DNA of 39,376 nucleotides from Candidatus Brocadiia bacterium. Lineage in GTDB: Bacteria; Planctomycetota; MHYJ01; WSZJ01. The notes below the pieces were generated by a model. That model saw only the letters and a list, made by a program, of their open reading frames with translations. It had not been told where the DNA came from and searched no databases. Shown here piece by piece: positions 17,049 through 31,565 of the stretch. Each line of letters opens with the position of its first letter. Position 1 is the first letter of the stretch. The position numbers and the translations under genes were made by a program. Where the stretch lies: NCBI GenBank assembly GCA_013360825.1, contig JABWAY010000002.1, forward strand, positions 1-39,376, in the 5' to 3' direction.

Positions 17049-17717
17049 TCAGACCGCGGGCGGCCCTCCTTCGCCGTCGTCACCGCAGGCGCCGCACGCC
17101 ATTTCGTCCGAGCTCTCGATCCCGTCGAGTTCATCCTCCGTCAGCCTGCGGCCGCCGACGAGCGCCAGCAGCCGCTCGGCCAGGGTCGTCCACGCGTCCA
17201 CCGGACACGCCGCCAGACGGGTGGCCATCCCCCCCGCGACGACCGACAGGTGGTCCTCGAAGAACTTCTCCCGCGCGGCGCGGGTGATCCCCGCGGCGTC
17301 CCCATCCCCGCGCGCCAGCGCGTAGGCCTCCTTCAGCCACAGGTACGCCGCGAAACCCGTCTCCGAGGCGACATGATCCGGCGGCTCCCCGGACACAGGC
17401 CGGAACCCGAACGCTTCGTACAGGTGCCCCGCCTCCGCCATCGCCCGCGCGGGGTCGCGGCGGCCGATGTAGGCCGCCTCCCGCGGGGATGCCGGTCCCC
17501 CCGGCCCGAACAGCGAGTCGTAGTCGGGAGATTCGATCGCCAGCAGCGTCCCGGCGGTCTTCCGGAGTTCCGGGACGCCGCTCTCCGCGACCAGCGCCGC
17601 ACCGTGCCGGCTTCGCGACTCCGAGGGGCGCTCGAAAAGCAGGCCGATGAGGCGGAATTCGGCCGCCTGCTGCAGAGCCGCCCGCGTCGCGGCGTCCTCC
17701 AGGATGTCCGTGCTCAT
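17049..17717 (-). CDS. TorD/NarJ/DmsD-family redox-enzyme maturation chaperone (delta subunit of the molybdoenzyme)
   Basis: ATG at 17717 overlaps the stop of the gamma gene (ATGA). It is 222 aa, with the AAEFRLIGLLFERP...LFGPGG...PREAAY..LYEAFGF pattern of TorD-like chaperones. It is the last gene of the operon. Confidence 0.8.
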   Translation of the reverse strand: MSTDILEDAATRAALQQAAEFRLIGLLFERPSESRSRHGAALVAESGVPELRKTAGTLLAIESPDYDSLFGPGGPASPREAAYIGRRDPARAMAEAGHLYEAFGFRPVSGEPPDHVASETGFAAYLWLKEAYALARGDGDAAGITRAAREKFFEDHLSVVAGGMATRLAACPVDAWTTLAERLLALVGGRRLTEDELDGIESSDEMACGACGDDGEGGPPAV

Positions 17718-18598
17718 GGTTTTTTCGCTCCCGTCAGGGTGAGGGGAATCCAGACCGTCCGCATCTTCCGTCCCCCGACGTCCCCGTCGGAGCCGTTCCA
17801 GACGGCGAAGGCCACGAGCGACGTGCCCCCGGGCGCAAGGCCGGACGGAAGCGGCCTCGTGATGACGACCGCCCATCCGGCGCCGGTCCGGCGTCCCAGC
17901 CCGGTGGAACTCTGGGACGGAGCGGGCCTCATCGTCCCAGGGCCGTCCGCCATCAGGTCCTGCACCGACTTCTTCGGCGACGGACTGACGATGTTCCCCA
18001 GCGACTTCGCCGGAGCGTACTGCTTCGCCATCTCCTCGGCCTTGCCCGGCGTCTTCTCCAGCCCCGGAGCCTCGAAGGGATAGTGATCGATGTTCGCGTT
18101 CGGATGCAGCGACTTGAGATCATCCGGCCGCCCGTCGATGAACGCCTGCGCGGTCGCGGTCCAGAACGCGATCTCCACGGGGCGCCCCGGCTCGCCCATC
18201 TGCGGGGCAGGCGTGTCCGGGCCGGAATTCGACGGCAGCTGCACCGCGCAGGCATCGGTGAACCGTGCGGCGTCCCGGACCGAGTCCTCCGTCGCGTCCG
18301 CCCATTCCAGCCGGAAGGCGATGGACTTCCCGTCCGTCAGCGCTCTCACCGTGACCTCGGTCGCCCCCGCCACCATCTTGCGGGGCTCCACCATGTCCTG
18401 GAGGATCAGCGGAGCCCTGAAGGCCTCCCCTGAACCCCACTGCGCATCCTCCGGCGTCGACGGCAGAGCGGCGACCTGCACCGCGCGAACCTCCGTCACC
18501 GGCGCCGGCGGAACAGGCCTGCTGCACCCCCACAGCCCTGCCGCCAGCACACCCGCCGCCGCCATCCACGTCCGACGTCCCAGTCGTCCGTATGCCAT
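17714..18598 (-). CDS. Haem-b gamma subunit of a type II DMSO-reductase-family enzyme (EB_dh / EbdC-DdhC-NxrC-like domain)
   Basis: ATG at 18598 is preceded by GAGGTG; the earlier ATG at 18619 lacks an RBS. Signal MAYGRLGRRTWMAAAGVLAAGLWGC. VRALTDGKSIAFRLEWADATED...FTDACAVQLP...PQMGEPGRPVEIAFW matches the ethylbenzene-dehydrogenase gamma-type haem-binding domain. Confidence 0.8.
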   Translation of the reverse strand: MAYGRLGRRTWMAAAGVLAAGLWGCSRPVPPAPVTEVRAVQVAALPSTPEDAQWGSGEAFRAPLILQDMVEPRKMVAGATEVTVRALTDGKSIAFRLEWADATEDSVRDAARFTDACAVQLPSNSGPDTPAPQMGEPGRPVEIAFWTATAQAFIDGRPDDLKSLHPNANIDHYPFEAPGLEKTPGKAEEMAKQYAPAKSLGNIVSPSPKKSVQDLMADGPGTMRPAPSQSSTGLGRRTGAGWAVVITRPLPSGLAPGGTSLVAFAVWNGSDGDVGGRKMRTVWIPLTLTGAKKP

Positions 18599-18608
18599 GG
18601 CATCACCT

Positions 18609-19736
18609 CTAGGGAACATTGGTCAGGAGAACGCCCCGGGCCGCATCCACCGCCATCCGGATGTACTTCGGCTCCTGGATCGGGACCCGGATCAGCTCCG
18701 TCCCGTCCTCGTCCAGACCGAGCATCTCCCCGCCCACCCGCCGGAACCTTGGGATGATCTGCTCCGTCGATCCGAACAGCGCCAGCAGACCCATCAGGTC
18801 CGGATCGTTCGGCGCGTTCAGGTACGCCTTCGTCGCCTCCTCGACCCCGGGCCCGAAAATCTGCGTCAGGAACGCCGCCGGGGCATGCAGCGGCGGCACG
18901 TAGTACACGTTCGGCTCCAGTCCGAACTGCGGGAAGAGCGGCAGCGCGATCTTCTTGACGTGGATCAGGTAGTCGATCGGATTGTCCTCGCGCATCTGGT
19001 CGGGCTTCGAGATCGACCCCGCCATCCGGATCTTCCCGATGCAGTTCGAGAAACACTGCGGCGCCAGCCCCTGCTCCTGCTTCGGATAGCACCCGATGCA
19101 CTTCTCCGACGTCCCCGTCATCGGATTGAAGAACACCTTCTTGTACGGGCACGCCTTCACGCACTCCTGGTACCCGCGGCACTTCCCCTGGTCGACCAGC
19201 ACGATCCCGTCCTCCGGCCGCTTGTAGATCGACCCCCGCGGACACGCCGCCAGACATCCCGGGTACGTGCAGTGATTGCAGATCCGCGCGAGATAGAAGA
19301 ACCAGTTCATATGAGGAAGCGTCATGTGGGCGCCCTTGGTGATGTCGCCGGCGCAGTCGTCTTCCCCGACGTTCGGGTATGCGTAGTCCCTGGAATCCGG
19401 GCGCCAGCCCAGCACGCGCTCCCCGGCGGGGGCCGACTCGAAGATCGTCTTCCCCTGGTACGTCTTCCCCTTCCAGTCCTGCGCGCCCAGCATGTCCAGG
19501 AGCTTCACATCCCACCCGAGCGGGTAGAACCCGTACGGCTTGCTCTCGACGTTGTTCCAGAGCATCGACTCCTGCCCCTTGCCGCTGGTCCATGTCGTCT
19601 TGCACGCGAGAGTGCATGTCTGGCAGGCGATGCACTTGTTCACGTCGAAAATCGCTCCGAACTGCTTCTTCGCCCGGACTTCGGGATACCAGTACGACAT
19701 CTCCCGGCCGAGCTGCCAGTTGTAGACACGGGGCAT
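18609..19736 (-). CDS. Fe-S beta subunit (NarH/NxrB/EbdB-like, four-cluster ferredoxin) of the molybdoenzyme
   Basis: 375 aa. Cys clusters: [44 protein letters not shown]...C. The N-terminus [11 protein letters not shown]...[12 protein letters not shown] resembles NarH/NxrB. Confidence 0.9.
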
Positions 19737-22700
19737 CAGCGTTTCTCCTCACCGGAGCCGTCGGGTTTGCGGACGAAACCGCCCTTCAGGAAGGTCTTCA
19801 TGGCGGCATTCTCATAGCGGGGACGGAAGCCCAGGTCCGCGGGTCGCCAGAGGCCCTTGCCCTCCAGCCCGCCGGGCTCCGCCTTCGTGATCTTCACGAT
19901 CGCTTCCCGCGGCGCGCCGACCGGGCAGTGGACATCGGGCATGAAGCCCTTGCCGATCACCTGGCCGAAGATGTCCTTGCGGACGAGGGAGTCGGTCATG
20001 TGGGTGGGCTTGAGCCAGCCGCGCGTGGCGGACTGGTGCGAACCTGAACGGAACATGGCCTGGTAGTTGGTGCGGGGGTTGCGGGCGAGCCCGTCGGCCC
20101 GGCTGGCCTGGCCCTGGACGGACCCGGGGGTCGCGCCGTACATGTTGAACCACATCCGGGTGACGCCCCGGGGGGTCCCCGGGTAGTACCGCGCCCGGCA
20201 CATCAGCCGCGCGACCTTGTAGTTCTCCTTGTCCTTCTCCCAGCCGCGGAACGGGCGGTCCTCGGGGTCGGCATCGATCCAGACGTAGTCGCCGTCTTCG
20301 ACGCCGACCGACTTGGCGTCGTCCGGGTGGATGTCCACGTACCCTTCGGTCGTGAACGGCATCCGTTTGTCGGTCCGGTAGATGTCTCCGAACGGGCCGA
20401 ACAGCATGGCGTTGATGTCGGTGTCGATCGGCGTCGTGTGCGAACCGTGGCGGTACTTGGGGGTGTGGAAGATGAACCCGTACCCGTCCTTCGCGAGCGG
20501 ATGAACGGTCGCCTTCGTCTCCGCCCAGGTCTTCACCACGTTCCGGCCCTGCCGGACTTCGCACGACAGGTCCTTCGGGTCCAGGCCGTAACTCTCCGGT
20601 CCCTTCACGCGGATCGCCTCGTGCGGCGGGGCGACGATCACGTTCGGCTCGTAAAACGTCGAGTCGATCGGCTCACGGTGCACGGCGAGGTTCTCGCCCG
20701 CATCGATGAACTCGTTCTCCTCCCGGTAGAACTCCAGACGCCCGGTCTTCGTGTACCACGGACGGGAGTCCTCCACCTGCTCGTACCCCACCGCCTTCGG
20801 GTACGTCCGGTTCATCATCAGGGCCGGGATCCCCTCCTTCGCCTTCGCCTCGAGGTCGGCGATCCGGTACCCCTTGCCGCAGCTGCTGAAGTCCAGGATG
20901 CGCTGCAGGTAGGTGTGAACCTGCCCCTGGTCGATGAAGTGCCACATCTTCGCGAACCTGTCGTCTCCGGTGTGTTTCGCGAGCGCGTGGCCGACCAGAG
21001 AGAGGATTTCGTGGTCGCCGCGCGTCTCGAAGGTCCGCGGGAGCGGGGTTCTGGGAAAGACGCAGAGGAAGGAGTTGGTGACCGAGGCGGTCATGTCCGG
21101 GAACTTGTGTTCGTGCCAGGCGTCCGCGGCGAACACGATGTCCGCCCATTCGCACGACGCCGTCCACCACCACTCGTTGACCGCGATCATCTCCATGCGC
21201 GGCAGAACGTTGACCACGGTGTTGTAGTGCCACTTGACGTTCCCCAGGATCGAGTTCGCGTTCGCGAACCACATCGACTTCGTCGGGCAGGGCATGTGCG
21301 ACTGCCCCGTGATCATCGTCTTCCCCATCTTGAGCGGGTGATCCTCGTGGTTGTAGTAGTGCGCCGACTCCGCCCGCCAGTACTGCTTCGGGCGCGCGGG
21401 CTTCGCCGGGTCGAGTTCCAGGTCGAACGGGTTCTCGTTGATGTACTGCGGGGAGCCGTTGAACAGCGCGACCCGGTAGTTCCCCGCGTACGAGCCGATG
21501 TTCCCGCCGATGCGCCCCGTGTTTCCCGTGAGGGCCGCGAGCAGGAACAGCGAACGGTCCTTGTTGTCGCTGTTGAAGAACTGATTGGGACCCATGCCGA
21601 CCGCGAACAGCGTCGTTCCGGGCTGGGCCGCAAAGTGCTTCGCCAGCGACTCCACGGCGGGTGCGGGCGCCCAGGTGAGCTCCTCCGTGGTCTTCGGATC
21701 GAAGTGGGCGACATACTCCCAGGTCAGGTCCCAGACCGTGCGGCAGCGGACCTTCGTGCCGTCCTGGAGCGTGACTTCGACCGACCCGGAGAGCCTCGGA
21801 TCGCCGACGGGGGAGTGGGCGCCGACCTGGTCGCGGGAGATCGCCTTCGGCGTCCCCGAGACCGCGTCCCACCACACGTAGTCGCCCCACTCGTTCCGCA
21901 TGTCCTCGCTCACGTACATCGTCTTCTGCATCCCCGGAGGCGGCGCCTTCTCGCCCGCCTTCAGGACCGTGATCTGGTTGGTCAGCGTCGCCGGCGTGCC
22001 TCCGAACACCTCCGCGGCACGCAGCATCTTCAGCGTGTCCATCCGGACCAGGAGCGGCAGGTCGGTGAACTTCTTCACGTAGTCCGCGTCGTAGAGCTTG
22101 TCCCTCATGATCACGTGCGCAAACCCGGTCGCCAGCGCGCCGGTCGTCCCCGGCCGCACGACCAGCGCCTCGTCGGCCTTGCTCGACGTCGCGGAATACT
22201 CGCAGGCGATGACGACCACCTTCGTCCCGTTCGCGCGGGCCTCCGTCAGCCAGTGCGAGTCCGGCATCTTCGTCGTGATCCAGTTCATCCCCCAGATCAC
22301 CACGGTCTTCGAGTGCTCCACCGCGTTCAGGTCCCACTCGACCGTCTGCTGCCCCGTCACCATCGGATGCCCGGGAGGCAGGTCGGTGTGCCAGGAGTAG
22401 TTGTCGAACCCCCGCCCGCCCAGCGCGGCGTCCGGCCCGACCCCGCGGACCTTCGAGTCGAGCAGGGCCATCGAGTTCGCCATCCGGTACAGCCCGAAGA
22501 CCCGCGTGATCCCCAGCAGCGGCATCCCGCCGCGGAACTTCAGCGTCTGCGTCCCGGCTCCCTTCATCGCCGCGATCGTCTCCGGATAGTAGTGCTGCTT
22601 CTCCAGCAGCGCCGCCCCCTTCTCCCCCGAATACGTCGTCGCAATGTTGATCAGAACCCGCGCCGCAATGTCCGCCGCCTCCTCGTGCGTGACGCGAACC

Positions 22701-23200
22701 CAGTTGTCCCGCGCCCGGTTGAAGTACTCCTTCGGCGGCAGTCCGTCCTCACCGCGCGGGAAACCCAGGTCCACCCACTTCTTGTACCCCTCGCGCACCA
22801 TGCAGTGCCTCAGCCGCCGGTCGCCGTAGAACCGCCGCGTCAGCGCCAGACCCTTCTGGCAGATCCGCGGATCCCAGCGGTGTGAGGTGATCCGCTTTCC
22901 GTCGGCGTCCTCCGCAAGGCCGTACTTCATGCTCGGCCCGATCCGGGTGACGATCCCGTTCTTCACGAAGGCGCGGAGAATGCAGTTGTGCGTGTCGTTC
23001 GGCGCGCACGTAAACGTGAACGTGGAGTCGTACGCCCAGAGATCCCGGTAGGTCTTCTCCCAGTCCCGGTTCGGGTACTTCTCGAGCGGGTTGCCGACCG
23101 GCTCGTCCGCCCCCCAGCTCTCCGACGCCGACATGGCCAGCGCCCCGAAGCCGAGGGAACTGAGGTTCTGCATGAAGTTGCGGCGTGTGATCCGGTTCAT
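19736..23200 (-). CDS. Tat-exported molybdopterin (Mo-bisPGD) catalytic alpha subunit, type II DMSO-reductase family, NarG/NxrA-like
   Basis: 1154 aa. Twin-arginine signal [13 protein letters not shown]...AMSASES. FS0 region [10 protein letters not shown]..x40..C. WHTDLPP aligns with NarG WYCD(222)LPP, the Asp Mo ligand. The start overlaps the cytochrome c stop (ATGA), and the stop shares one base with the beta start (TGATG). Confidence 0.9.
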
Positions 23201-24885
23201 TTCTTCACCTCCCAGGTGCGCAGAAACGCGACGATCGCTTCAATCTCCCCGGCAGACAGGGCCTGCCGCGCGGGAGACCCGCTTGCGAACGACGGCATGG
23301 TCGTGCCGGACCTGCCGCGCCGGATGGACTCGAACAGGTAGGTGTCCGTCGCGGCCTTCAGGAACGCCGTGTTGTTCAGGGCGACGCCTTCCGCTCCCTC
23401 GCCGTCCTTCCCGTGGCAGGTCGCGCAGTGCGCCGCGAAGAGCTGTGCGCCGGCCCCCGGCTCGTCCTTCGCCCAGCGGGCAGGCTTCGTGTCCTTCTCC
23501 GGTCCGATCCCCCCGGCCGTGGACCGCAGATACGCCACGATCGCGTCGATCTCACGGGGCCGGAGCCCTCCTTCCTTTTCACCCCATGCCGGCATCCGCC
23601 GCCCCGGCCGGCCGTGGAGGATCGACTGCTTCAGGAAATCGTCGGTGGCGACGGCCAGGAAATCCCGGTTGCCGACGGCGGGGAAGGGCTGTGCTCCGGC
23701 GAAGCGCATTCCTTCGCCGGAGGTGCCGTGGCAGCTGGCGCAGAACGTGGCGTAGAGCGTCGAACCGTCCGTCGAGAACTCCCGTTCGCCGAGCCGCAGG
23801 GCCCGGGCGCGGTCAGGCGGCCAGAGAGCCTCGGGGGCGTCGGTCCGCCGGAGGGACAGGAGATAGGTCACCAGGGAGTCGACCTGGGCGTCCGTCAGTC
23901 CGAAGTCCGGCATCGCGGAGCCGGGGACGATCGTCGCAGGGGACTTGAGGTGCTGCGCGTGCCAGTTGGCGATCGTGTGCTCGCCCGTGACGCGGGAAAA
24001 GTTCGTCAGCGCCGGGTCGCGTTCGCCGGCGCGCGAGAGGTCGGGGCCGTCGTCGCCGCCGACACCGTTCACCTTGTGGCATCCGCGGCAGCCGAGCGAG
24101 TTGAAGAGCGACTTGCCGTGCGCGAGGGCGGGAACGCCGATGCGCGAGCTCAGATACCCCTCCATGACGGTCCGGTCCCGCTCGGGGATCTCCCCGAACG
24201 ACGCCTTCCACGGAAAGGCATCCGGCGGCTTCCCCGCCTCCGCAAGCCGGCGATTCCCCAGGTGTCCTTCGTACCAGTCGCCCGGAATGCCCTTCGCCCC
24301 GATCGCGGACAGGTCGGGTCCTTCGCCGCCTCCCGCACCGCCGGGCCGGAAGGTCCCTCCCTTGCCGTCGATTCTGTGGCAGGAGAGGCAGTCATAGCGG
24401 TCGACGAGGTCCCGGCCGCGGTCGAGCATGGCGAGGTTGGGGACGTGGACATGGGAGTGGCAGCTCCCGCACCCGGCCTGGACGTGTTTCAGCGGGATCA
24501 TCGGCTGGGGCCAGTGCGGGGCGGTCCCATGCGCGCCGGCCTTCGTCGTGGCGCGTCCCTGCCCGGCGTGACAGGTGGTGCAGCCGATCTCGGCCGGCTC
24601 GTGGTGGACCGGGGGGTGCTTCCCATAGATGCGGTCCCCCGCGATCCCCGTCTCCCCGGGAGCCATCCCGACGTGGCAGCTCACGCACCGGTCGGTCGCC
24701 TTCAGCGCCGGGACGACGATCTGCCGGAGCTGGATCTCGAACTCCGTCCCCGGGGGCAGGTGGGCCGCCACGTGGGCCTGCGCCTGGCGCCACTCGCTCA
24801 GGACGTGCTCGGAGTACGCCGCCCACAGGAGCACGAGCAGCGTTCCCGTGCTGGCCCACAACAGCAGGTGTTTGTTCCGGTTCAT
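23197..24885 (-). CDS. Membrane-anchored heptahaem cytochrome c
   Basis: 562 aa with an N-terminal TM helix ([18 protein letters not shown]). Seven CxxCH motifs: CVSCH, CTTCH, CGSCH, CLSCH, CRGCH, CASCH, CATCH. The last three sit in class-I-like domains with MPDF/MPAW/MPSF distal Met contexts. Confidence 0.85.
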
Positions 24886-24886
24886 G

Positions 24887-26449
24887 TTAGTGCCCCGGCC
24901 ACTGAGAGGGAGACCAGTAGAAGTCCCAGTTCGGACCGCGGAACCAGGTCCCGATCACGGTGAGGACGAGGAAGCCCATCAGAAAACAGGTGAAGAGCCC
25001 CAGGGCTCCTGCCCGCATCGAATTGAAGCGACGGACGATGTAGACCGAGTAGAGGCCGTAGATCAGCGTCAGCACCGTCCCGGGGTTGATCGCGGTGATC
25101 AGCAGCTGCGGTGTCCCCGGGAACCACTGGCGGAGCCATCCGAAACGGATGGCGATCGCCTCCAGGGCCAGGACCGTGCCCAGTCCGAAGACCGCCGACC
25201 AGGCGACGAGCTTCCCGCCCCCCGGCCCGCCGAACCACTCGCCGGTTCCCTTCTTCTCGCGGTCGAGGTAGGGGATCAGCCCGAGACCGACGATGATGAT
25301 TCCGGGGATCAGGACTCCCCCCGCGAACGCGGAGTGGGCGACCAGTTCCTGGAGGCCGAGGAAGTACCACGGAGCCTTGGCGGGGTTCTCCGGGACGTTC
25401 GGGTTGGCGAGTTCCTTCAGCGGCGCGTCGGAGACGATGCTGAGCAGAACGCAGACAAGAAACGTCAGCATGAACACCGCCGCCTCCGCGTAGAACAGGT
25501 GCGGCATCGACGGCACCGTGTTCTCAGCCCCGGCACCGACCGCGGGTGTGCGGCCGCGGACGACGGCCGCCAGGGACCAGGTCTTTCTCGGCGCCGCCGT
25601 CCACGCCGGCACCGCCTCCGGGTCCGGGCCGCCGAGTCTCCGGTCCGCGTCCTCCGGTTTCGCCAGGCCGCCGTCCTTCCGGATGCGCCAGAAGTGAATG
25701 CCGAGCAGCCCGCAGAGCGCGATCGGGAGAATCATGACGTGCAGCAGGTAGAACCGGATCAGCGCTTCGGCCCCGACCTCATCGGACCCGAGAAGGAGGA
25801 GTTTCTGGAGTCCGCCCGGGTCGAAGTGAGGCGTCAGGCCGATCGGATCTGTGACCTCGCGCGGGGACTGGGCGATGTTGGCGCCGATGGTGATGGCCCA
25901 GTAGGCGAGCTGGTCCCAGGGAAGGAGATACCCGGTGAAGCTGAGACCGAGCGTGACGACGAGGAGGAACATCCCGGTCGCCCAGTTGAACTCCCTGGGT
26001 TTCCGGTACGACGCGGTGTAGAAGACCCGCGCCATGTGAATCAGCACCGAGAAGACCATGACGTTGGCGGACCAGCGGTGAATGTTGCGCAGGAACCGGC
26101 CGGTCGGGACGACGAAGTGGATGTCCTTGATCGACTGGTAGGCCGCCTCCGGGTAGGGCTTGTAATAGAACATGAGGAGGATGCCGGTCACGGTGGCGAT
26201 GAGGAAGGAGCTCAGGGCAACCATCCCGAGGCCCCAGGTCGTGGACCAGCGCAGGCTCCAGCGGTGCGTGCGCACGCTCTGGACATGGAGGAAAAAGTTC
26301 GAGAAAACGAAGTCGTTGCGGCTCCGGTCGCTGTCCGGCCTGCCGGTCCGGAACATCGACTCGATGAACCTCCGCGGCACTTTTCGCAGGTTGTCCGCAA
26401 AGGTCCCGAGACCTGTGCGTTCCTCCTGCCCGTGGCCGGGGGTGTTCAT
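24887..26449 (-). CDS. Cytochrome b of a Rieske/cytochrome b complex (fused b6 + subunit IV-like, 520 aa)
   Basis: Haem-ligand pairs are H-x13-H (HRWSANVMVFSVLIH) and H-x14-H (HVMILPIALCGLLGIH). GYLLPWDQLAYW is a block typical of cytochrome b. The subunit IV-like part contains APWYFLGLQE. ATG 26449 overlaps the Rieske stop (ATGA). Confidence 0.9.
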   Translation of the reverse strand: MNTPGHGQEERTGLGTFADNLRKVPRRFIESMFRTGRPDSDRSRNDFVFSNFFLHVQSVRTHRWSLRWSTTWGLGMVALSSFLIATVTGILLMFYYKPYPEAAYQSIKDIHFVVPTGRFLRNIHRWSANVMVFSVLIHMARVFYTASYRKPREFNWATGMFLLVVTLGLSFTGYLLPWDQLAYWAITIGANIAQSPREVTDPIGLTPHFDPGGLQKLLLLGSDEVGAEALIRFYLLHVMILPIALCGLLGIHFWRIRKDGGLAKPEDADRRLGGPDPEAVPAWTAAPRKTWSLAAVVRGRTPAVGAGAENTVPSMPHLFYAEAAVFMLTFLVCVLLSIVSDAPLKELANPNVPENPAKAPWYFLGLQELVAHSAFAGGVLIPGIIIVGLGLIPYLDREKKGTGEWFGGPGGGKLVAWSAVFGLGTVLALEAIAIRFGWLRQWFPGTPQLLITAINPGTVLTLIYGLYSVYIVRRFNSMRAGALGLFTCFLMGFLVLTVIGTWFRGPNWDFYWSPSQWPGH

Positions 26450-26943
26450 ACGGTCTCCTTCGTGCCGGGCGGCACGACCGTCCCCTCATCGATCAGAATC
26501 GCCCCTCCGCCGGCGGACCGGACGGACAGCCACGGGAGCCCCTTCGGCGCGGGCCCGCGGAGCACGGTCCCGTCCGGCGCGAACTGCGACCCGTGGCAGG
26601 GGCAGTCGAAGCCCATGGCCGCGGGTTTCACGATGCAGCCGAGGTGCGTGCAGACGGTGGACATGGCGAAGACCCTGTCGCCGTCCTTGAACACCACGAC
26701 CGACCGGCCCTCCGGGAAGAAGGGTGTTCCGGACGGGAGGCTCTCCGGAAGCGTTACCTTGAATTTCTTCGCCGCCGACGGCAGCACGGCGGCCTTCGGC
26801 AGCTTTGCCGCGCCCAGCGCGGCGAAACCGCAGGCGCCCGCGGCCATCGAGGCCGCGGCAATGCCGAGGAAGTCCCGGCGCGGCATGGCCTCGGGATCCA
26901 GGCGGGAAGGCTTCCCGGGGGACGGCTCCGAATGCGTGCTCAT
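26446..26943 (-). CDS. Rieske [2Fe-2S] protein with twin-arginine signal
   Basis: 165 aa, the C-terminal part of track ORF 26446..28200. It has RRDFLGIAAA, CTHLGC and CPCHGS. ATG 26943 overlaps the stop of the upstream gene (ATGA). Confidence 0.9.
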   Translation of the reverse strand: MSTHSEPSPGKPSRLDPEAMPRRDFLGIAAASMAAGACGFAALGAAKLPKAAVLPSAAKKFKVTLPESLPSGTPFFPEGRSVVVFKDGDRVFAMSTVCTHLGCIVKPAAMGFDCPCHGSQFAPDGTVLRGPAPKGLPWLSVRSAGGGAILIDEGTVVPPGTKETV

Positions 26944-28865
26944 GCGATCCTCCAGTCCACGGTGAACTGCACCCGATCCATCGCGATCGCCTCCACCGGG
27001 CACCTCCGGGCACAGAGAGCGCACCGGATGCACCGGTCCTCGTCCTTCAGAATGGCGGAGTTCCCTTCTGCGTCCGCCCCGCCGCCGAGGGCGTCCTCGA
27101 CCGCCGCCTCGAGCCACTCCGACGGACCCATCGCCGACAGCGGCACCAGCTTCAGGCAGAGTGTCGGGCAGACGTCCGCGCATCCGCCGCAGAGCACGCA
27201 GCGGGATCCGTCGAAGACCGGCGTCACGCCGCAGTCGAGGCATCGCGACGCTTCCCGGCGCGCCTGCTCCTCCGTGTATCCCTTCTCCACCGGCACGTCC
27301 ACGCCGCCCATCCGTTCGTGCGGGTCCGCCGTCGGGATCTCCACCCGCCGGATCGACTCGTACCCGTGCTCGCGGGTGTACCGTTCCTGCGTCACGAAGT
27401 CCGTCCGGACCTCGACCTCGAGGCGGCGGCCGGTCAGGTGCGAGTAGATGGAGCGCGCGGCCTTTTTCCCGGAGGCGACGGCGTCGATGAGGAGCCGCGG
27501 GCCGTGCGCCAGGTCGCCCGCCACGAAAACGCCGGCGGCGGTCGACTGCAGCGTCTCGCGATCGACCGTCGGCCACCCCGGGCGCGCCTGCTGGACATCC
27601 GTCCCGCCGTCCTGGAGGAACGACAGGTCCGCGGCCTGACCTGTCGCGAGCAGCACGGTGTCGCAGGCGACCGTCTGCCGGCGCGCCTCGTCGTACACGG
27701 GCGCGAACTTCCGGTCCGCGTCGAAGACCCGAAGACACTTCCGGAAGGTCACTCCCGTGATTCTCCCGTCCGCCCCGCGGAGAATTTCCACGGGGCCCCA
27801 CCCGTTCAGCCGCTCGACCCCTTCCTCGTCTCCCTCCCGGATCTCGACCGTGTCCGCGGGCATTTCCTCCAGCGTTTCGAGGGATGCGAGGCGGACTTTC
27901 CGGGTTCCCGGCAGCCGGATCGCCGTGCGCGCCGCGTCGGTCGCCAGGTTGCGCAGCACGGTCCGCGCGACGTCGTAGGCGACGTTGCCGCCGCCGATGA
28001 CGAGCACATCGGAGCCGATCGCCAGCGGTTCCCCGACGGAGACGGCCCGCAGGAAGTCCACCCCCCCGAACACGCCGGGGCCGGCCTCGCCAGGCAGACC
28101 GAGCCCCCGCGAACGTTTCGCCCCCACGCACAGCAGGATCGCCCGGTGGCGCCGGCGGAGTTCGGCGAAACTGACGTCCTTTCCGACCGTCACCCCGCAC
28201 CGGATCTCGACGCCCAGCGCCTGGATCACGGCGATTTCCCGCTGGATCAGCGCGCGCGGCAGGCGGTAGGCGGGGATCCCGACGGCCAGCATCCCCCCGG
28301 GCACCTTCTCGATGTCGTACACGACGGGCTTGAACCCCATCAGCGCCAGGTCATGGGCCGCGGACAGCCCCGCCGGACCTCCTCCGATGATGCCGACCGA
28401 GTCCCCGTTTACCTTCGGGATCCGTCCGGCAAAGGCCCGAAGCGTCGCCGCCATCTCCTCCGCATCCGAGCAGGTCTCCGGCGTATGGGCCTGAAGCGCC
28501 TTCCACACGTCTCCGGGATCGCGCACATCCGGGCCGGCCTGCTCGCAGGCGAACCGTTTCAGCGCCCGGATCGAGACCGGGCGGTCGAGCGCCACGAATC
28601 TGCCGTCGGCGTCCGTGCGCGGGATCTTCCCGCGGCGGCAGGCGGTCTCACAGGGGGCCCCGCAGACCCGGCCGCAGATGGAGGCGAACGGATTCGGGCC
28701 GCGGGCGATCAGGTAGGCCTCCTCGAACCTGCCGGCGGCGACCGCCCGGACGTAGCCGCGGGCGTCCGTGTGGACCGGGCAGGCCGCCTGGCAGGCGACC
28801 AGTTCCCGATGGTGGGACTCACCCGGGACGGAGACGTTGAGCCGCGGGGAGGCGGTGTCGTTCAT
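26940..28865 (-). CDS. GltD-like (glutamate synthase small-subunit family) FAD/NAD(P)H oxidoreductase with N-terminal Fe-S sites and a C-terminal 2x[4Fe-4S] ferredoxin domain; cytoplasmic
   Basis: ATG 28865 is residue 86 of track ORF 26940..29120 and lies 5 nt after GGAG. 641 aa with no signal peptide. Motifs: CQAACPVH..CGRVCGAPCETAC, GIIGGGPAGLSAAHDL, VLVIGGGNVAYDVA, CLDCG..CVLCGGCADVCP..CIRCALCARRCP. Confidence 0.85.
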   Translation of the reverse strand: MNDTASPRLNVSVPGESHHRELVACQAACPVHTDARGYVRAVAAGRFEEAYLIARGPNPFASICGRVCGAPCETACRRGKIPRTDADGRFVALDRPVSIRALKRFACEQAGPDVRDPGDVWKALQAHTPETCSDAEEMAATLRAFAGRIPKVNGDSVGIIGGGPAGLSAAHDLALMGFKPVVYDIEKVPGGMLAVGIPAYRLPRALIQREIAVIQALGVEIRCGVTVGKDVSFAELRRRHRAILLCVGAKRSRGLGLPGEAGPGVFGGVDFLRAVSVGEPLAIGSDVLVIGGGNVAYDVARTVLRNLATDAARTAIRLPGTRKVRLASLETLEEMPADTVEIREGDEEGVERLNGWGPVEILRGADGRITGVTFRKCLRVFDADRKFAPVYDEARRQTVACDTVLLATGQAADLSFLQDGGTDVQQARPGWPTVDRETLQSTAAGVFVAGDLAHGPRLLIDAVASGKKAARSIYSHLTGRRLEVEVRTDFVTQERYTREHGYESIRRVEIPTADPHERMGGVDVPVEKGYTEEQARREASRCLDCGVTPVFDGSRCVLCGGCADVCPTLCLKLVPLSAMGPSEWLEAAVEDALGGGADAEGNSAILKDEDRCIRCALCARRCPVEAIAMDRVQFTVDWRIA

Positions 28866-29278: not shown

Positions 29279-29339
29279 CCCCACCCCGCAACCCCACCCA
29301 ACACCCGGATCCGCCCCTCCACCCGCCTCCCCCGCCCCC
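29279..29339 (-). repeat. Strand-asymmetric G-run tract (nine runs of 3-5 G on the coding strand) immediately 3' of the REC-PilZ stop codon
   Basis: The plus strand shows C-runs at 29279-82, 29284-87, 29292-95, 29297-99, 29304-06, 29314-17, 29322-24, 29329-33 and 29335-39. The minus-strand transcript would read GGGGGCGGGGGAGGCGGGTGGAGGGGCGGATCCGGGTGTTGGGTGGGGTTGCGGGGTGGGG. Confidence 0.6.
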
Positions 29340-30100
29340 TACAGCCCGGGCTTCATCACATTCGTCCCGCGCTCCATCAGCCGGCGCGTGAACGCCTTCA
29401 ACCGCTCCTTCTCCGCCTGCGCCAACTCCACGAAATTCAGCCCGACATCAAATCGCTTCAGGTCCACCAGAGGCTCGACCCGGATCGCCTGCATCTTCGC
29501 CTTGAGCGGCGCCTCACCGGGAAGGTCGAGCTCGATGTTCAGCACCGCCCCCTTCGCAAGCTTCTCCTCCGTCTGGATCGAAATCCCCGTCTCGCTCAGA
29601 TCCGTCGTCATCGCCTCGCGCTTCTTCGTGAAGAAGCCGTCGTTCACGTTCTTGTAGCTCATCAGCAGCGCCTTCTTCAGCTTCACCCCCATCTGCCCCG
29701 CGCCGCCCACCCCGTCCTGCCCCGTGGCCAGCTTCGTGAACGCTTCCAGGACCTTGTCCCGCTGAAGCGGCTTCCGCACGCGGACCCCGTTGGAGAGGGA
29801 GATCGCGCCCATCACGAGATGCACCGTCTCCCCGGAGTGCAGGATGAGGACCTTGAGCTTCGGATACTTGTCGGCGATCTTCTTGACCAGGCTGTTGCCG
29901 CCGTCGCCGGGCTTGTTGGCGTGCCCGGGAAGGAGCAGATCGATCGCGATCGCCCAGGGCTTGAGCAGGTCGATCGCTTCGAACAGCGCGTCCCCATCCG
30001 TGGCCTCCCCGACGACCTCGTAGGGCGTCCCCGACAGCAGTCCGGAGAAGGCTTTGCGGACTTCGGCACTCTTGTCGGCGACGATGATGGTCGTTCGCAT
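29339..30100 (-). CDS. Response regulator: receiver (REC) domain fused to a PilZ domain
   Basis: ATG 30100 is residue 61 of track ORF 29339..30280. The REC part has IIVADKS, AIAIDLLLPG, VLILHSG and VRKP. The PilZ part has TTDLSETGISI (DxSxxG) and a C-terminal beta-barrel pattern. The usual RxxxR is replaced by KLKK. Confidence 0.8.
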   Translation of the reverse strand: MRTTIIVADKSAEVRKAFSGLLSGTPYEVVGEATDGDALFEAIDLLKPWAIAIDLLLPGHANKPGDGGNSLVKKIADKYPKLKVLILHSGETVHLVMGAISLSNGVRVRKPLQRDKVLEAFTKLATGQDGVGGAGQMGVKLKKALLMSYKNVNDGFFTKKREAMTTDLSETGISIQTEEKLAKGAVLNIELDLPGEAPLKAKMQAIRVEPLVDLKRFDVGLNFVELAQAEKERLKAFTRRLMERGTNVMKPGL

Positions 30101-30278
30101 GGAATCCCCCGAGAAATCGGTTCGTCCGGATTCAGGCCTCGGATGGATGATGCGGTCTCGGGAGGGGCTGAAGGAAGCACAAAACGCGGCAATCTGCGAT
30201 CTGTGAGAACGGGAGGAGAGCCGGCCGGCCGGCTCCGGCCCCCCCCGGCGGCACGGCCGGCCGTACAATGCCCCGCCC

Positions 30279-31565
30279 ATGCCCTCCCTTCCGTTCTACT
30301 CGCGCTACACGCGCGGGCTCCACCTGCGCGCCGAGCTGCTGAACAACGTCTTCACCGCCGTCGTCGGCCTCGCCATCACCATCGCCCGCAAGACGCTCGG
30401 CGCCTCCGACGACTGGATCACGATCCTCACCACCGCCGGCCCCGCCGCGAACCTGACCGCCATCTTCTGGGCGAACGCCATGGAGGGACGGGCCAAGCGG
30501 CCGTTCATCCTGGGCGCCGCCGTCCTCGGCCGGCTCTCCCTCGCCTTCATGGCCTTCGCCGTGGAGCCCCCGCTCTTTGTCCTTCTCTGCTGCCTCTACT
30601 TCCTCTCGGAGCCCGCCTTCATCCCCGCCCAGAATGCGCTCCTCCAGGCCAACTACCTGCCGTCGATCCGGGGAAGGGTCTTCGGGGGGATCACGGGCGT
30701 GGCGCGGATCGCGTACCTGGTGACGGCGCTGGCGGCGGGATGGGTTCTGGACCATGACGGCGACGCCTACCGGTGGATGTTGCCGGTGGCCGGGGTGATC
30801 GGAACCGCCGCGTATTTCCAGTACGCCCGGATCCGGGTCCGGCGATGGGATGCGCCGGAGACGGTGAAGGAGCGCGGCGTGGTCGACGCGCTCCGGGGGT
30901 TCCTGAGAATCCTGCGGGAGGACCGGGAGTTCGACCGGTTCGAGCGGAACTTCATGCTCTACGGGATCGCGTTCATGATGGTGATGCCGATTCACATCTA
31001 CCTGCTGATCGACGTGCTGGAGATGTCGTACACGCAGGTGACCTGGTGCTCGATGATCCTGCTGCAGGTGGTGATCGTGATCGGGAGCCGGACTGCTGGG
31101 CGGCTCCTGGACCGCCTCGGGCCGTGCCGGCTGGCGGCGATCGCATTCGCCGCGCTGGTCGGCTACCTCGGACTGCTCGCCTGCGCGGCGGTCACGCGCA
31201 GCGTGCCGCTGGCGTTCGCGGGATTCGGGATGTTCGGGATCGGCATGGCGGGGGTGAACTCCGCCTGGTCGCTCGGCGCGATGCGCTTCGCCGGCGACCG
31301 GGATGCTTCGGGCTACATGGGCGCCCACGTCGCCTGCGTCGGCGTCCGCGGGTTGTTCGGTCCGGCCATCGGAAACGCGATCTTCCTCGCGGTGGAAGGA
31401 CCCTGGCTCGGCCTCCCGGGGTACGGAATGATGACGGTGTATGTCGTCGCGGCGATCCTGATGGCCGCGGCGGCGATCGAGATGTTCCGGCAGGGGAGAA
31501 GGACGGAGGGGACGCCCGCCGCGGGATCCGCGGCGCAGGAGCCTGCCGCGCTGGCCCGGGGGTGA
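30279..31565 (+). CDS. MFS-type transporter
   Basis: 428 aa with about 12 hydrophobic segments and an overall MFS-like architecture. Substrate is unknown. Confidence 0.75.
   Translation: MPSLPFYSRYTRGLHLRAELLNNVFTAVVGLAITIARKTLGASDDWITILTTAGPAANLTAIFWANAMEGRAKRPFILGAAVLGRLSLAFMAFAVEPPLFVLLCCLYFLSEPAFIPAQNALLQANYLPSIRGRVFGGITGVARIAYLVTALAAGWVLDHDGDAYRWMLPVAGVIGTAAYFQYARIRVRRWDAPETVKERGVVDALRGFLRILREDREFDRFERNFMLYGIAFMMVMPIHIYLLIDVLEMSYTQVTWCSMILLQVVIVIGSRTAGRLLDRLGPCRLAAIAFAALVGYLGLLACAAVTRSVPLAFAGFGMFGIGMAGVNSAWSLGAMRFAGDRDASGYMGAHVACVGVRGLFGPAIGNAIFLAVEGPWLGLPGYGMMTVYVVAAILMAAAAIEMFRQGRRTEGTPAAGSAAQEPAALARG

Follow-up and report, generated by a model that had tools for sequence, protein, structure and literature searches.

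The window, that is, the whole 39,376-nt stretch of DNA that was analysed, holds an operon of eight genes, all on the reverse strand. They run in the order NAD(P)/FeS flavoprotein, Rieske protein, cytochrome b, heptahaem cytochrome c, alpha, beta, haem-b lipoprotein gamma and chaperone:

26940..28865, (-): GltD/NfnB-like NAD(P)-binding FAD/Fe-S flavoprotein, opening the operon
26446..26943, (-): Rieske [2Fe-2S] protein, 165 aa, cluster motifs CTHLGC...CPCHGS
24887..26449, (-): cytochrome b of 520 aa, a fusion of a b6-like N-terminal region and a subunit-IV-like region
23197..24885, (-): heptahaem c-type cytochrome, 562 aa, hydrophobic N-terminus
19736..23200, (-): alpha subunit (NxrA/NarG-like), 1154 aa, fifth gene of the operon
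18609..19736, (-): beta subunit (NxrB/NarH-like), 375 aa, four-cluster Fe-S protein
17714..18619, (-): gamma subunit (NxrC/EbdC-like haem b protein), alternative start ATG at 18598
17049..17717, (-): NarJ/TorD-like chaperone (delta), 222 aa, a length also given by the gene caller

The eight genes are translationally coupled, their seven junctions being ATGA, TGATG or near-abutting: ATGA start/stop overlaps flank the Rieske gene on both sides, join the heptahaem cytochrome stop to the alpha start and join the gamma stop to the chaperone ATG. The same sequence recurs, at 100% identity, in a contig of MAG GCA_026647635.1, whose accession series includes MAGs named 'PDA_C'. The operon is flanked by housekeeping genes (GH57, glycogen synthase, GalT-like, GSDH, Acs, Dxr and RseP) and no nitrifier or anammox marker was present within the 39,376 nt, in line with the earlier view that nothing obvious marks the host as a nitrifier or an anammox organism.

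The initial annotation was confined to the alpha gene and overlooked the conserved eight-gene operon with its Rieske/cytochrome b complex; the features it gave for alpha (RRNFM, FS0, WHTDLPP) were all found where it had placed them. The TAT motif RRNFM spans aa 6–10 (23171–23185). The FS0 ligands C65 (23006–23008), D69 (22994–22996), C73 (22982–22984) and C114 (22859–22861) are spaced C65-x3-D69-x3-C73 at 22982–23008, with C114 40 residues past C73. Asn68 is encoded at 22997–22999, the Mo ligand Asp273 (22382–22384) lies inside WHTD273LPP, and the clade-specific Gln540 (21581–21583) occupies the position of NarG His546. In the alignment to 7B04_B, the four FS0 positions fall on C67/D71/C75/C115 of Kuenenia stuttgartiensis NXR-A (KsNXR-A), the crystallographic 3Cys/1Asp ligands (Chicano 2021); in E. 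coli NarG they correspond to H49/C53/C57/C92. Moreover, N68 corresponds to the Asn proposed to bind substrate (Asn70 in Ks, Asn52 in NarG), and D273 to the Mo ligands Asp275 (Ks) and Asp222 (NarG). Both alignments agree with the earlier assignment to the Asp-ligated, TAT-exported type II DMSO-reductase family with a 3Cys/1Asp FS0. The best match was Kuenenia NXR-A (PDB 7B04; end-to-end, E = 7e-253, 38% identity), with weaker PDB matches to PcrA (4e-48), NarG (1e-36) and EbdA (9e-32) chains; the lengths of these chains (PcrA 899, EbdA 976, NarG 1244–1247 and KsNXR-A 1148 aa) agree with those given in the initial annotation. Judged from its sequence, alpha is the catalytic subunit of a periplasm-facing nitrate/nitrite molybdoenzyme.

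The partner subunits gave a similar picture. Beta (Pfam Fer4_11; NCBIfam DMSO_red_II_bet, 4e-77), with a first cluster motif C35-x2-C38-x2-C41-x3-C45, matched NXR-B (7b04_A, 2e-112) better than PcrB (1e-67), EbdB (5e-64) or NarH (2e-50). Gamma (Pfam EB_dh; PDB 7b04_C 7e-17, EbdC 5e-13) has a probable lipoprotein signal ...AAGLWGC32 (Cys codon 18524–18526), signals of the lipobox type recur in many of its homologues, and no transmembrane helix appeared in a hydropathy scan. Its predicted haem ligands Met141 (18197–18199) and Lys285 (17765–17767) align on Met155 and Lys305 of KsNXR-C. The chaperone belongs to Pfam Nitrate_red_del (NCBIfam DMSO_red_II_cha, 2e-9). The full-length match of alpha, beta and gamma to Kuenenia NXR-ABC, with every predicted cofactor ligand kept, counts for the identity of the enzyme. 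As in that complex (PDB 7B04; Chicano et al. 2021), there are three subunits, alpha chains of 1154 (window) and 1148 aa, a TAT signal, a 3Cys/1Asp FS0 with Asn beside the Asp, an Asp Mo ligand, a beta with four clusters and an EB_dh-family gamma with Met/Lys haem ligands. In contrast, the window alpha shares only 38% identity with NXR-A, belongs to another sub-lineage and has Gln540 where Kuenenia has His531; gamma is a probable lipoprotein, whereas that of Kuenenia is soluble; NXR-T and a tubule context are missing; and the operon, unlike the anammox NXR cluster, is joined to a Rieske/cytochrome b complex.

The flavoprotein probably starts at the ATG at 28865, giving 641 aa as also called on the identical contig, while its longest reading frame opens with a GTG at 29120; as it has no signal peptide, it is presumably cytoplasmic. 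It carries Fer4_20, Pyr_redox_2 and two Fer4 domains, its best NCBIfam hit is PRK12771 NAD(P)-binding protein (1e-112), and its best PDB matches are the NfnB-like modules 9bov, 8oh5 and 9n5u. The Rieske protein, with a TAT-like RRDFL and one hydrophobic helix at its N-terminus, is closest in the PDB to the Rieskes of the Kuenenia R/b complexes (9rk4, 2e-16; 9rk3, 2e-15), followed by b6f Rieskes. Cytochrome b (Pfam Cytochrome_B and Cytochrom_B_N_2; NCBIfam best ExtP, 3e-71, and ExtQ) has at least seven hydrophobic segments by hydropathy, and a motif scan of its 520 aa found no CxGG (haem cn) motif. The heptahaem cytochrome (Pfam Cytochrom_C three times and Cytochrome_CBB3) has CxxCH motifs at aa 67, 102, 139, 166, 266, 382 and 487, and its N-terminus is a probable signal anchor.

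What stands out most is the fixed arrangement of the eight genes. The genes are collinear in nearly all of 80 related loci with enough contig, spread over many phyla, while the flanking genes differ among them. Identities across these loci are 67–77% for cytochrome b and 43–70% for the heptahaem cytochrome; the flavoprotein is collinear in about 60 of them, at 60–78%. Recurrent neighbours encode regulators of the Rrf2 (23–33 loci) and Crp/Fnr (9) types and proteins with a hemerythrin domain (13), as is typical for the anaerobic respiration of N-oxides; in the window itself, no Rrf2 or Crp regulator adjoins the operon. No terminal oxidase was found among the conserved neighbours of the related loci, nor cld or another pathway gene in the window or among recurrent neighbours. 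In the isolate Thermopirellula anaerolimosa, described as an obligate anaerobe, the full module adjoins norB, two Rrf2 regulators and Moco biosynthesis genes.

In trees built by neighbour-joining (NJ) rather than maximum likelihood, alpha falls in a lineage sister to the Nitrospira/Nitrospina/anammox NXR, which also holds the Nitrotoga NXR and the periplasmic NAR of Hydrogenobacter/Hydrogenobaculum. Alpha lay outside the Pcr, Clr, Ser and Ebd clades, membership in which had been named as ground for refuting the candidate. Membership in the Nitrospira/Nitrospina/anammox NxrA lineage, known only as NXR, was likewise rejected: the window clade separates from Kuenenia, Nitrospira and Nitrospina at 92% in the full-length and 97–98% in the N-terminal tree. 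It joins the Nitrotoga-type lineage at 97% NJ bootstrap (N-terminal), and its alpha is 49% identical to Nitrotoga and 54% to Hydrogenobaculum over the N-terminal thirds despite reading errors; the Nitrotoga, Hydrogenobaculum, Nitrospira and Nitrospina sequences, of about 270–330 N-terminal residues, were machine-read from a PDF alignment and contain errors. The initial proposal of a periplasmic NXR/NAR-like candidate thus stands insofar as alpha is much closer to periplasmic NXR than to PcrA, NarG or EbdA, and falls short in that alpha lies outside the Nitrospira/Nitrospina/anammox lineage. The FS0 Asp and the length of ~1150 aa, taken earlier as hallmarks of periplasmic NXR, mark the whole periplasmic NXR/NAR super-clade instead and do not indicate nitrite oxidation, because alpha's lineage holds enzymes of both kinds. 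Indeed, Nitrotoga shows that nitrite oxidation occurs within it (Kitzinger 2018), and the H. thermophilus periplasmic NAR of the same lineage is reported as biochemically characterised (Kameya 2017).

Around alpha lies a tight clade of 70–84% identity, with at least 579 species-level genomes, nearly all MAGs, from Planctomycetota, Acidobacteriota, Binatia, Zixibacteria and others. CAPNDTHNC and WHTDLPP occur in 221 of the 221 full-length close homologues and an N-terminal RR motif in 218, so the motifs are not due to chance. Common to all 221 are also [16 protein letters not shown] and the Gln that replaces the His of NarG and every proven NXR; the machine-read Hydrogenobaculum sequence has Gln as well. 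The clade has already been noticed, uncharacterised, in non-nitrifying bacteria, and alpha is one more member; metagenomic studies routinely score it as nxrA and propose novel nitrite oxidisers. With the Nitrotoga-type lineage (Ca. Nitrotoga fabula NXR, Hydrogenobacter thermophilus NAR; Kitzinger 2018) it shares [12 protein letters not shown][DE]PRIC, WHTDL(P/A)P, a gamma without transmembrane helix and the order alpha-beta-gamma-chaperone. Yet the window clade forms a very tight sub-clade of its own, Nitrotoga retains the His at the NarG-H546 position, and its loci are described as nxrABC plus chaperone only (Kitzinger 2018). A Gaiellaceae relative of the His type also differs from the window, having no R/b genes.

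The cofactor ligands, subunit set, export signals, operon coupling, conservation and phylogenetic position can all be read at the sequence level. They are best explained, with a probability of about 0.6, by a quinol-dependent, membrane-tethered periplasmic nitrate reductase supercomplex of the Hydrogenobacter/Thermogutta type, encoded in one operon with its own quinol oxidase; its direction (nitrate reduction), its physical assembly and the role of the flavoprotein are what we infer. The chaperone would load Mo-bisMGD into alpha in the cytoplasm, and Tat would export the alpha-beta pair to dock on the lipoprotein haem-b gamma. Quinol would be oxidised at the Qo site of a Rieske/cytochrome b complex dedicated to the enzyme. 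From the Rieske cluster, the high-potential electron would move to the heptahaem c, next to the Met/Lys-ligated haem b of gamma, then along the four Fe-S clusters in beta and the 3Cys/1Asp FS0, and finally reach Mo (Asp273). Asn68 would hold nitrate, and its reduction to nitrite outside the cytoplasm would make a nitrate transporter unnecessary. The low-potential electron would cross the membrane via the b haems, either to re-reduce quinone in a proton-motive Q cycle or to be exchanged with the cytoplasmic flavoprotein.

Comparable arrangements have been described. The Thermogutta terrifontis R1 nar locus THTE_1506-1512 (complex III genes, NarG, NarH, 'NarI' and TorD; Elcheninov et al. 2017) corresponds by description to window genes 2–8 and is the only Nar of this planctomycete isolate, which grows anaerobically with nitrate; its authors annotated a cytoplasmic Nar, however, and mention no flavoprotein gene. 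Its NarG was reported as a deep Nar-DMSO lineage and, in another study, placed in the pNXR clade, and Thermoguttaceae MAGs carry the module at 71–74% alpha identity. As Thermogutta and Hydrogenobacter were compared through published descriptions rather than sequences, their homology and membership in the tight clade are taken from those descriptions. The haloarchaeal pNar, encoded with a Rieske/cytochrome b complex (NarB and NarC; Martinez-Espinosa 2007) and antimycin-sensitive, and the Methanoperedens Nar, proposed to work alike, offer a precedent: they combine TAT-exported, periplasm-facing NarGH and an EbdC/Orf7-like haem b subunit with genetic or proposed functional coupling to such a complex, so that a nitrate reductase facing outward is served by a proton-motive Q cycle. 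They differ in lacking the NAD(P) flavoprotein and the heptahaem cytochrome, and their alpha belongs to a different clade: Halorussus P0140, 36% identical and outside the Asp-type clade, has Cys at the FS0 Asp position.

An unlikely variant keeps nitrate reduction but assigns it to a self-contained electron-bifurcating machine, as proposed for the anammox R/b complexes (Kustd1480-85 and Kuste4569-74; cytochrome b 'subfamily G' of Dibrova et al.). [quoted passage not shown] The subunit set is that of Kustd1480-85 and Kuste4569-73, namely a Rieske protein, a b6-like cytochrome b with a subunit-IV part, a multihaem cytochrome c replacing cytochrome f and a large cytoplasmic NAD(P)-binding Fe-S flavoprotein (NAD(P) oxidoreductase). 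Moreover, the window Rieske is most similar to the Rieskes of those two complexes, translational coupling links the genes for flavoprotein and Rieske protein, the former being conserved in the roughly 60 loci mentioned above, and, while no high-potential partner reaction is known for Kustd1480-85, the operon here also encodes a molybdoenzyme that could serve as electron sink. However, the mechanism is a proposal even for anammox bacteria, the CxGG motif of the Kuenenia cytochromes b is absent, and the flavoprotein might just as well deliver electrons from NAD(P)H to the complex; the window complex also differs in having cytochrome b and subunit IV as one polypeptide and seven haems in its cytochrome.

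Still less probable is a true nitrite oxidoreductase that passes electrons from periplasmic nitrite oxidation via gamma and heptahaem c to a terminal oxidase, some being driven in reverse through the Rieske/cytochrome b complex; its hosts would then be (facultative) nitrite oxidisers that have gone unrecognised, or would need the enzyme for detoxifying nitrite. NXR/NAR enzymes are reversible in vitro (Chicano 2021), which counts against the main reading, and nitrite oxidation would fit the conserved high-potential Met/Lys haem b and the 3Cys/1Asp FS0 just as well. Nitrotoga NXR in the same lineage, an NXR as nearest solved structure and the habitual nxrA scoring point the same way. Yet alpha lies outside the lineage known only as NXR, the fixed operon partners of the enzyme are a quinol oxidase plus an NAD(P) flavoprotein and not a terminal oxidase, a kind of gene that did not turn up among the conserved neighbours, and a bifurcating Qo site run in reverse should, on thermodynamic grounds, use up NAD(P)H rather than make it. 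Nitrate reduction is favoured by this operon logic, by the Crp/Fnr and Rrf2 regulators of the relatives, by the anaerobic isolate Thermopirellula with its norB and Rrf2 neighbours, by the Thermogutta literature, and by the loss of a His conserved in all proven NXRs, a change shared with Hydrogenobaculum.

Alternatively, though improbably, the change from His to Gln would reflect an altered specificity, for chlorate/perchlorate, selenate or another periplasmic acceptor: Gln540 in 221/221 members against His in NarG and KsNXR, cld genes that some soil contigs carry next to pNxr-like genes, the likeness of the cytochromes b and c to those of the Geobacter selenite/tellurite ext operon, and a Zixibacteria RBG-1 homologue without three of five conserved substrate-site residues, suggested to be a new enzyme type (Castelle 2013), are outweighed by the lack of cld or other pathway genes in the window and among the recurrent neighbours, by the retained Asn68 (Ile in EbdA), by the machine-read Gln of Hydrogenobaculum, from a nitrate-reducing group, and by Thermogutta, which respires nitrate apparently with this module as its only Nar.

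The alpha gene, which encodes an NxrA/NarG-like catalytic subunit, is the fifth of an eight-gene operon that the initial annotation had missed and that was found by ORF, domain and junction analysis. Upstream of alpha on the same strand lie the genes for a flavoprotein, a Rieske protein, a cytochrome b and a heptahaem cytochrome c, and downstream follow the beta and gamma subunits and a NarJ/TorD-like chaperone. The upstream part of this module and alpha itself are:

26940-28865, minus strand, GltD/NfnB-like NAD(P)-binding Fe-S flavoprotein
26446-26943, minus strand, Rieske protein, found by translating all three frames
24887-26449, minus strand, cytochrome b of 520 aa
23197-24885, minus strand, heptahaem c-type cytochrome with seven CxxCH motifs
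19736-23200, minus strand, alpha subunit of 1154 aa

The Rieske gene escaped the list of ORFs of at least 100 aa, since translation starts within the flavoprotein gene upstream of it (an ATGA overlap); spurious high-GC ORFs cover the region 26446-26943. The operon has four junctions with ATGA overlaps and one with TGATG, the rest abutting or overlapping by a few bases, so that the genes are translationally coupled. The evidence on the host genome comes from the window of 39.4 kb (approximately 69% G+C), which is 100% identical to contig JAPKGT010000012.1 of MAG assembly GCA_026647635.1. An assembly or ORF artefact was ruled out by the GC3 of 0.92 and by the presence of the identical protein on 7 independent contigs.

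A tblastn search with the eight proteins recovered the same gene order in essentially every one of 80 related loci, wherever the contig reaches. The sole clear exception is the Planctomycetia MAG SJ466 (JADLHC010000114.1), the second-closest alpha relative with 83% identity, in which alpha, beta, gamma and the chaperone are present, while the flavoprotein, Rieske, cytochrome b and cytochrome c genes are absent within 10 kb upstream. An Rrf2/hemerythrin gene is also found at that locus. None of the genes flanking the module in the window recurs beside it in the closest related loci, and the fixed gene order combined with unshared flanks indicates that the module was inherited or transferred as a unit. 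In comparison with the eight genes of the window, a Gaiellaceae relative of the His type has only alpha, beta, gamma and the chaperone, and the Nitrotoga loci are described likewise (Kitzinger et al., 2018). The genes of P0124 and P0125, which represent other sub-lineages, sit at contig ends and so gave no information on gene context. No description of the invariant eight-gene architecture was found in the literature consulted.

The motifs read earlier in alpha were confirmed. The twin-arginine signal RRNFM occupies residues 6-10, the FS0 motif is C65-x3-D69-x3-C73-x40-C114 (22982-23008 and 22859-22861), and WHTD273LPP contains the Asp molybdenum ligand (codon 22382-22384), aligning with Asp275 of Kuenenia stuttgartiensis NXR-A (PDB 7B04) and Asp222 of NarG. 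The four FS0 ligands align with C67/D71/C75/C115 of the Kuenenia protein and H49/C53/C57/C92 of E. coli NarG, and Asn68 of alpha corresponds to the proposed substrate-binding Asn70 (Kuenenia) and Asn52 (NarG). The subunit lengths quoted earlier agreed with the PDB chains (PcrA 899, EbdA 976, NarG about 1246 and Kuenenia NXR-A 1148 aa), and the assignment to the Asp-ligated type II group stood, given the matches to PF00384 (1e-20) and TIGR03479 (DMSO_red_II_alp; 1e-87, under the curated cutoff) and the D273/NarG D222 alignment. Beta matched TIGR03478 (4e-77), gamma matched TIGR03477 (2e-36) and EB_dh, and the chaperone TIGR03482 (2e-9). The type II DMSO reductase set is thus present, with the four-ligand FS0 motif, a four-cluster beta, a haem b gamma and a NarJ/TorD-like chaperone. 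None of the subunits reached the cutoff of a curated NCBIfam family, so a family name is not simply transferable.

Among solved structures, alpha aligned over residues 3-1144 with Kuenenia NXR-A (E=6.8e-253), and the next matches were much weaker: PcrA (4ydd; 4e-48 over a partial region), NarG (1e-36) and EbdA (2ivf; 9e-32). Beta and gamma matched the corresponding NXR-B (2e-112) and NXR-C (7e-17), and gamma retains the haem b ligands as Met141 and Lys285 (Kuenenia Met155 and Lys305). There is no transmembrane helix in gamma; a lipobox-like signal (AAGLWGC32), with clear lipoprotein signals common in its homologues, suggests that the enzyme would be membrane-tethered. A Pcr/Clr/Ser/Ebd-type enzyme was ruled out by the scores (the NCBIfam EbdA model gave 123 bits against a cutoff of 2000) and by the trees, from which the individual ClrA, SerA, DdhA and C25DH reference sequences were absent. 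Scores, trees and alignments alike therefore leave alpha outside the characterized non-NXR clades, and the motif assignments, whose failure was the other outcome that the initial annotation had named as fatal to its reading, are sound. Three features rule out a cytoplasmic NarG: the TAT signal, an FS0 of the Asp type and the lack of NarI. In beta (18609-19736, minus strand), the first Fe-S motif (aa 35-45) is all-Cys, C35-x2-C38-x2-C41-x3-C45. Kitzinger et al. reported Cys in Nitrotoga NxrB where N. defluvii NxrB has Asp45, and by this unaligned comparison the window beta appears to be Nitrotoga-patterned.

With its TAT signal, Asp as the second FS0 ligand, Asn before that Asp and a length of approximately 1150 aa, alpha has all the features of the periplasmic NXR/NAR super-clade. 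Two periplasmic lineages are distinguished in the literature, one of Nitrospira, Nitrospina and anammox bacteria, with enzymes known only as NXR, and a sister lineage (Kitzinger et al., 2018). The sister lineage holds the Nitrotoga NXR, the biochemically characterized periplasmic nitrate reductase of Hydrogenobacter thermophilus and putative NarG of known nitrate reducers. The identity of alpha to Kuenenia NXR-A was 38% over 965 residues, whereas P0306 and P0124, anonymous representatives of the Kuenenia/Nitrospira type, were 56-59% identical to it. For Nitrotoga, Hydrogenobaculum, Nitrospira and Nitrospina, the references were N-terminal fragments obtained by machine reading of the alignment in the supplement of Chicano et al., and they contain errors; only these fragments and two short active-site strings were used, since the machine reading was unreliable, with duplicated or invented rows from about residue 268. 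Against these error-prone fragments, the N-terminal part of alpha was 49% identical to Nitrotoga, 54% to Hydrogenobaculum and 40-43% to Nitrospira and Nitrospina. Alpha, Nitrotoga and Hydrogenobaculum have in common the strings [12 protein letters not shown][DE]PRIC and WHTDLPP/WHTDL, where the Kuenenia/Nitrospira type instead reads SPNDTHAC, NWNPRMC and WHGDQAP.

Neighbor-joining trees with 100 bootstraps were built for a full-length set and an N-terminal set (about 340 columns). In the full-length tree, the clade with Asp-type FS0 separated from the Cys-type relatives and NarG with 100% support, relatives with Cys/His-type FS0 forming the outgroups, and Kuenenia, P0306 and P0124 were split from the window clade, Gaiellaceae, P0125 and SAR202 with 92%. 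In the N-terminal tree, some references of which were machine-read, Nitrospira, Nitrospina, Kuenenia, P0306 and P0124 grouped together (98%), and the machine-read Nitrotoga and Hydrogenobaculum joined the window clade (97%). Alpha is thus placed across the 92% and 97-98% splits from the Nitrospira/Nitrospina/anammox NxrA in these neighbor-joining trees, with some references machine-read. The placements of Thermogutta and Hydrogenobacter follow published descriptions. Judged by its sequence, alpha is a member of the periplasmic NXR/NAR super-clade in its Nitrotoga/Hydrogenobacter-type lineage. Of the earlier label "periplasmic-NXR-like," the super-clade part was upheld and membership in the Nitrospira/Nitrospina/anammox NxrA lineage was not, as judged by identities and neighbor-joining trees; both indicate that the Asp in FS0 and a size of about 1150 aa mark the whole super-clade and not nitrite oxidation. 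A two-sequence profile of the machine-read Nitrotoga and Hydrogenobaculum fragments, an averaged profile being a poor query, retrieved no named reference from a collection of 5.8 billion proteins, only short metagenomic fragments of up to 558 aa. The search of representatives at 50% identity gave useful diversity; named nitrite-oxidizer sequences were hidden inside the clusters, and cluster look-ups returned MAG taxa only.

One active-site position divides these enzymes. Gln540 of alpha aligns with His546 of NarG, which we take to be a conserved residue of the NarG substrate pocket. His occupies this position in Kuenenia NXR-A (His531) and the representatives of that type, as it does in a haloarchaeal pNarG and in the relative from Gaiellaceae, whereas the window alpha and 221 of 221 clade members have Gln and so lack the His of the NxrA lineage. 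In the machine-read alignment, His is found in Nitrospira, Nitrospina and Nitrotoga, all proven NXRs, and Gln in Hydrogenobaculum (GVNQYFH), which also has the adjacent string [10 protein letters not shown] in common with the window clade. This partly machine-read correlation points to the nitrate-reducing Aquificales enzymes as the probable nearest functional relatives. The invariant His-to-Gln exchange, of which we found no description in the literature consulted, is a candidate marker for separating NAR-type from NXR-type periplasmic enzymes, an open practical problem.

Relatives of alpha are numerous and form a tight clade in non-nitrifying bacteria. The protein search gave more than 120 clusters with 73-84% identity, all of about 1150 aa, from MAGs labelled Planctomycetes, Kryptonia, Eisenbacteria, Deltaproteobacteria, Latescibacterota, Zixibacteria, Binatia, Anaeromyxobacter and Thermoanaerobaculia, and when one genome per GTDB species was scanned, at least 579 stretches proved to encode a relative. 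Among the best 80 of these (70-84% identity, all MAGs), Acidobacteriota (Bryobacterales, Solibacteraceae and others), Planctomycetota and Binatia predominated; the closest relative among the matches listed was a groundwater Planctomycetota MAG, with 84%. The strings [16 protein letters not shown] and G-P-N-Q-[FY]-F were present in all 221 full-length clade members collected. Groundwater, floodplain, tunnel-biofilm and national-scale surveys score such genes as nxrA or "periplasmic NxrA/NarG." The window clade is already noticed in the literature, without an assigned function; alpha itself is therefore a known kind of protein, and the parts worth following are the eight-gene architecture and the His-to-Gln marker.

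The other half of the module resembles the Rieske/cytochrome b (R/b) complexes of anammox bacteria, as a Rieske protein, a cytochrome b with a subunit-IV part, a multihaem cytochrome c and an NAD(P) Fe-S flavoprotein are encoded together. The best matches of the Rieske protein among solved structures were the two Kuenenia R/b-complex Rieskes, 9rk4 and 9rk3, and the flavoprotein matches NfnB-like NAD(P)H modules. The same subunit set occurs in Kuenenia Kustd1480-85 and Kuste4569-73: Rieske, b6-like cytochrome b plus subunit IV, a multihaem c replacing cytochrome f, and an NAD(P) oxidoreductase. Unlike those complexes, the window cytochrome b is a single polypeptide lacking the CxGG haem-cn motif (no C.GG in its 520 aa), a motif reported for the Planctomycetes subfamily G cytochrome b. 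From its sequence, the flavoprotein would either accept electrons from the R/b complex or deliver NAD(P)H electrons into it.

The evidence on direction consists of precedent, a cultured carrier, Thermogutta, recurrent neighbors and the shared Gln. The haloarchaeal outward-facing Nar is encoded with an R/b complex and is antimycin-sensitive, and in Methanoperedens Nar is thought to be fed through an unusual R/b complex. The isolate Thermopirellula anaerolimosa (L082, 152-4351; BAAHYX010000006.1) has the complete module, with an alpha 70% identical to that of the window, directly beside a norB-type NO reductase and a pair of Rrf2 regulators, of which one is a fusion to hemerythrin, and flanked also by a cluster for Moco biosynthesis. 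Thermogutta terrifontis grows anaerobically with nitrate, and its only Nar (NarG, NarH, "NarI" and TorD, THTE_1509-1506) directly adjoins the complex III genes THTE_1510-1512 (Elcheninov et al., 2017); in another study, this NarG fell within the pNXR clade. The module is also present in MAGs of Thermoguttaceae, and from these descriptions we infer that the Thermogutta nar locus is of the same kind. In the Thermoguttaceae-profile search, T. terrifontis was absent from the best 120 matches, and the isolate T. anaerolimosa surfaced. Near the module, Rrf2 regulators occur in 23-33 related loci, hemerythrin-domain proteins in 13 and Crp/Fnr regulators in 9, and molybdopterin genes also recur. In about 16 loci (e.g., 2420-3940, plus strand, of locus L005), the module is adjoined up- or downstream by a porin-like protein of the outer membrane (about 500 aa; Pfam Alginate_exp), through which the anionic substrate could pass. 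Neither a terminal oxidase nor genes for CO2 fixation were seen among the recurrent neighbors.

Taken as a comparison of sequences and gene contexts, this suggests that the enzyme is probably a quinol-dependent periplasmic nitrate reductase (probability roughly 0.6). A further variant, overlapping with this reading, would make the module one supercomplex, with an R/b quinol oxidase wired on the outside to the nitrate reductase and on the inside to the NAD(P)-reducing flavoprotein. In that case, the energy for the uphill reduction of NAD(P)+ from quinol, by electron bifurcation at the Qo site, would come from nitrate reduction (+430 mV). For the Kuenenia R/b complexes, such a bifurcation, in which quinol drives NAD(P)+ reduction, has been proposed, Kustd1480-85 having no known high-potential partner reaction, and nitrate reduction is a plausible partner for an R/b complex encoded in the same operon. 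The two possible directions of electron flow through the flavoprotein and the divergent cytochrome b keep this variant doubtful. Counting against nitrate reduction as the direction, NXR is reversible in vitro (Chicano et al., 2021), and Nitrotoga proves members of this lineage able to oxidize nitrite (Kitzinger et al., 2018); a genuine nitrite oxidase is nevertheless improbable, considering the Gln540 of the whole clade and the recurrent neighbors. That the enzyme acts on another substrate is quite improbable, although Castelle et al. (2013) noted that the "putative NXR" of Zixibacteria RBG-1 lacks 3 of 5 conserved substrate-site residues and is maybe a nitrate reductase or a new enzyme type.

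Metagenomic surveys routinely score the window clade, present in at least 579 species-level genomes, as nxrA, i.e., as nitrification potential. If this clade consists of nitrate reductases, such surveys overcount nitrite oxidizers and miss a widespread nitrate-to-nitrite route that needs no nitrate transporter and, being periplasmic, may be oxygen-tolerant. By way of a Q cycle, the fixed R/b linkage would let a nitrate reductase that faces outward still conserve energy. With the NAD(P) flavoprotein encoded alongside, the bifurcation hypothesis for the anammox R/b complexes becomes testable in bacteria that can be cultivated and are not anammox organisms (Thermogutta and Thermopirellula). Should the supercomplex exist, it would be the first NAD(P)H-generating anammox-type R/b complex with an identified high-potential partner reaction, it would occur in hundreds of lineages from soil, sediment and groundwater, the cultivable Thermoguttaceae among them, and a large share of environmental "nxrA" counts would be nitrate reductases.

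In T. anaerolimosa, a full set of clustered genes for molybdopterin biosynthesis (moaA, moaD/E, moeA, moaC-mog and mobA) comes after the module, and module, norB, Rrf2 and molybdopterin genes form a compact N-oxide respiration island. The Thermoguttaceae MAG AnMBR.bin305 contains two complete eight-gene modules, on contigs bin305_23 (L013) and bin305_44 (L066), whose alphas are each 84-89% identical to that of another Thermoguttaceae MAG (L039), which suggests either a duplication or a mixed bin. The JAPKGT contig identical to the window shares its accession series with the Phycisphaerae MAG PDA_C_MAG.97 (JAPKGY010000086.1); going by names only, PDA_C may point to a partial-denitrification/anammox reactor, a habitat selecting for nitrate-to-nitrite reducers.

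In contrast to many related loci, no Rrf2 or Crp/Fnr regulator adjoins the module in the window. The local regulator may therefore be a receiver-domain/PilZ protein (29339-30280, minus strand), encoded 219 nt upstream of the operon, a distance that becomes about 470 nt with the flavoprotein start at 28865. Next to it lies a divergent MFS transporter gene (30279-31565, plus strand), whose identification as NarK found no support. A 981-aa protein with a Ser/Thr protein kinase domain and a C-terminal FGE-sulfatase (formylglycine-generating-enzyme-like) domain is encoded at 1539-4484 (minus strand) and has one weak relative among the related loci (L029). At 34608-37067 (minus strand), an 819-aa ORF combines DUF7133 (aa 80-310) with a match to Dxr that is without most of the N-terminal NADPH-binding domain; this may reflect a genuine fusion, or else two genes that the ORF listing ran together.
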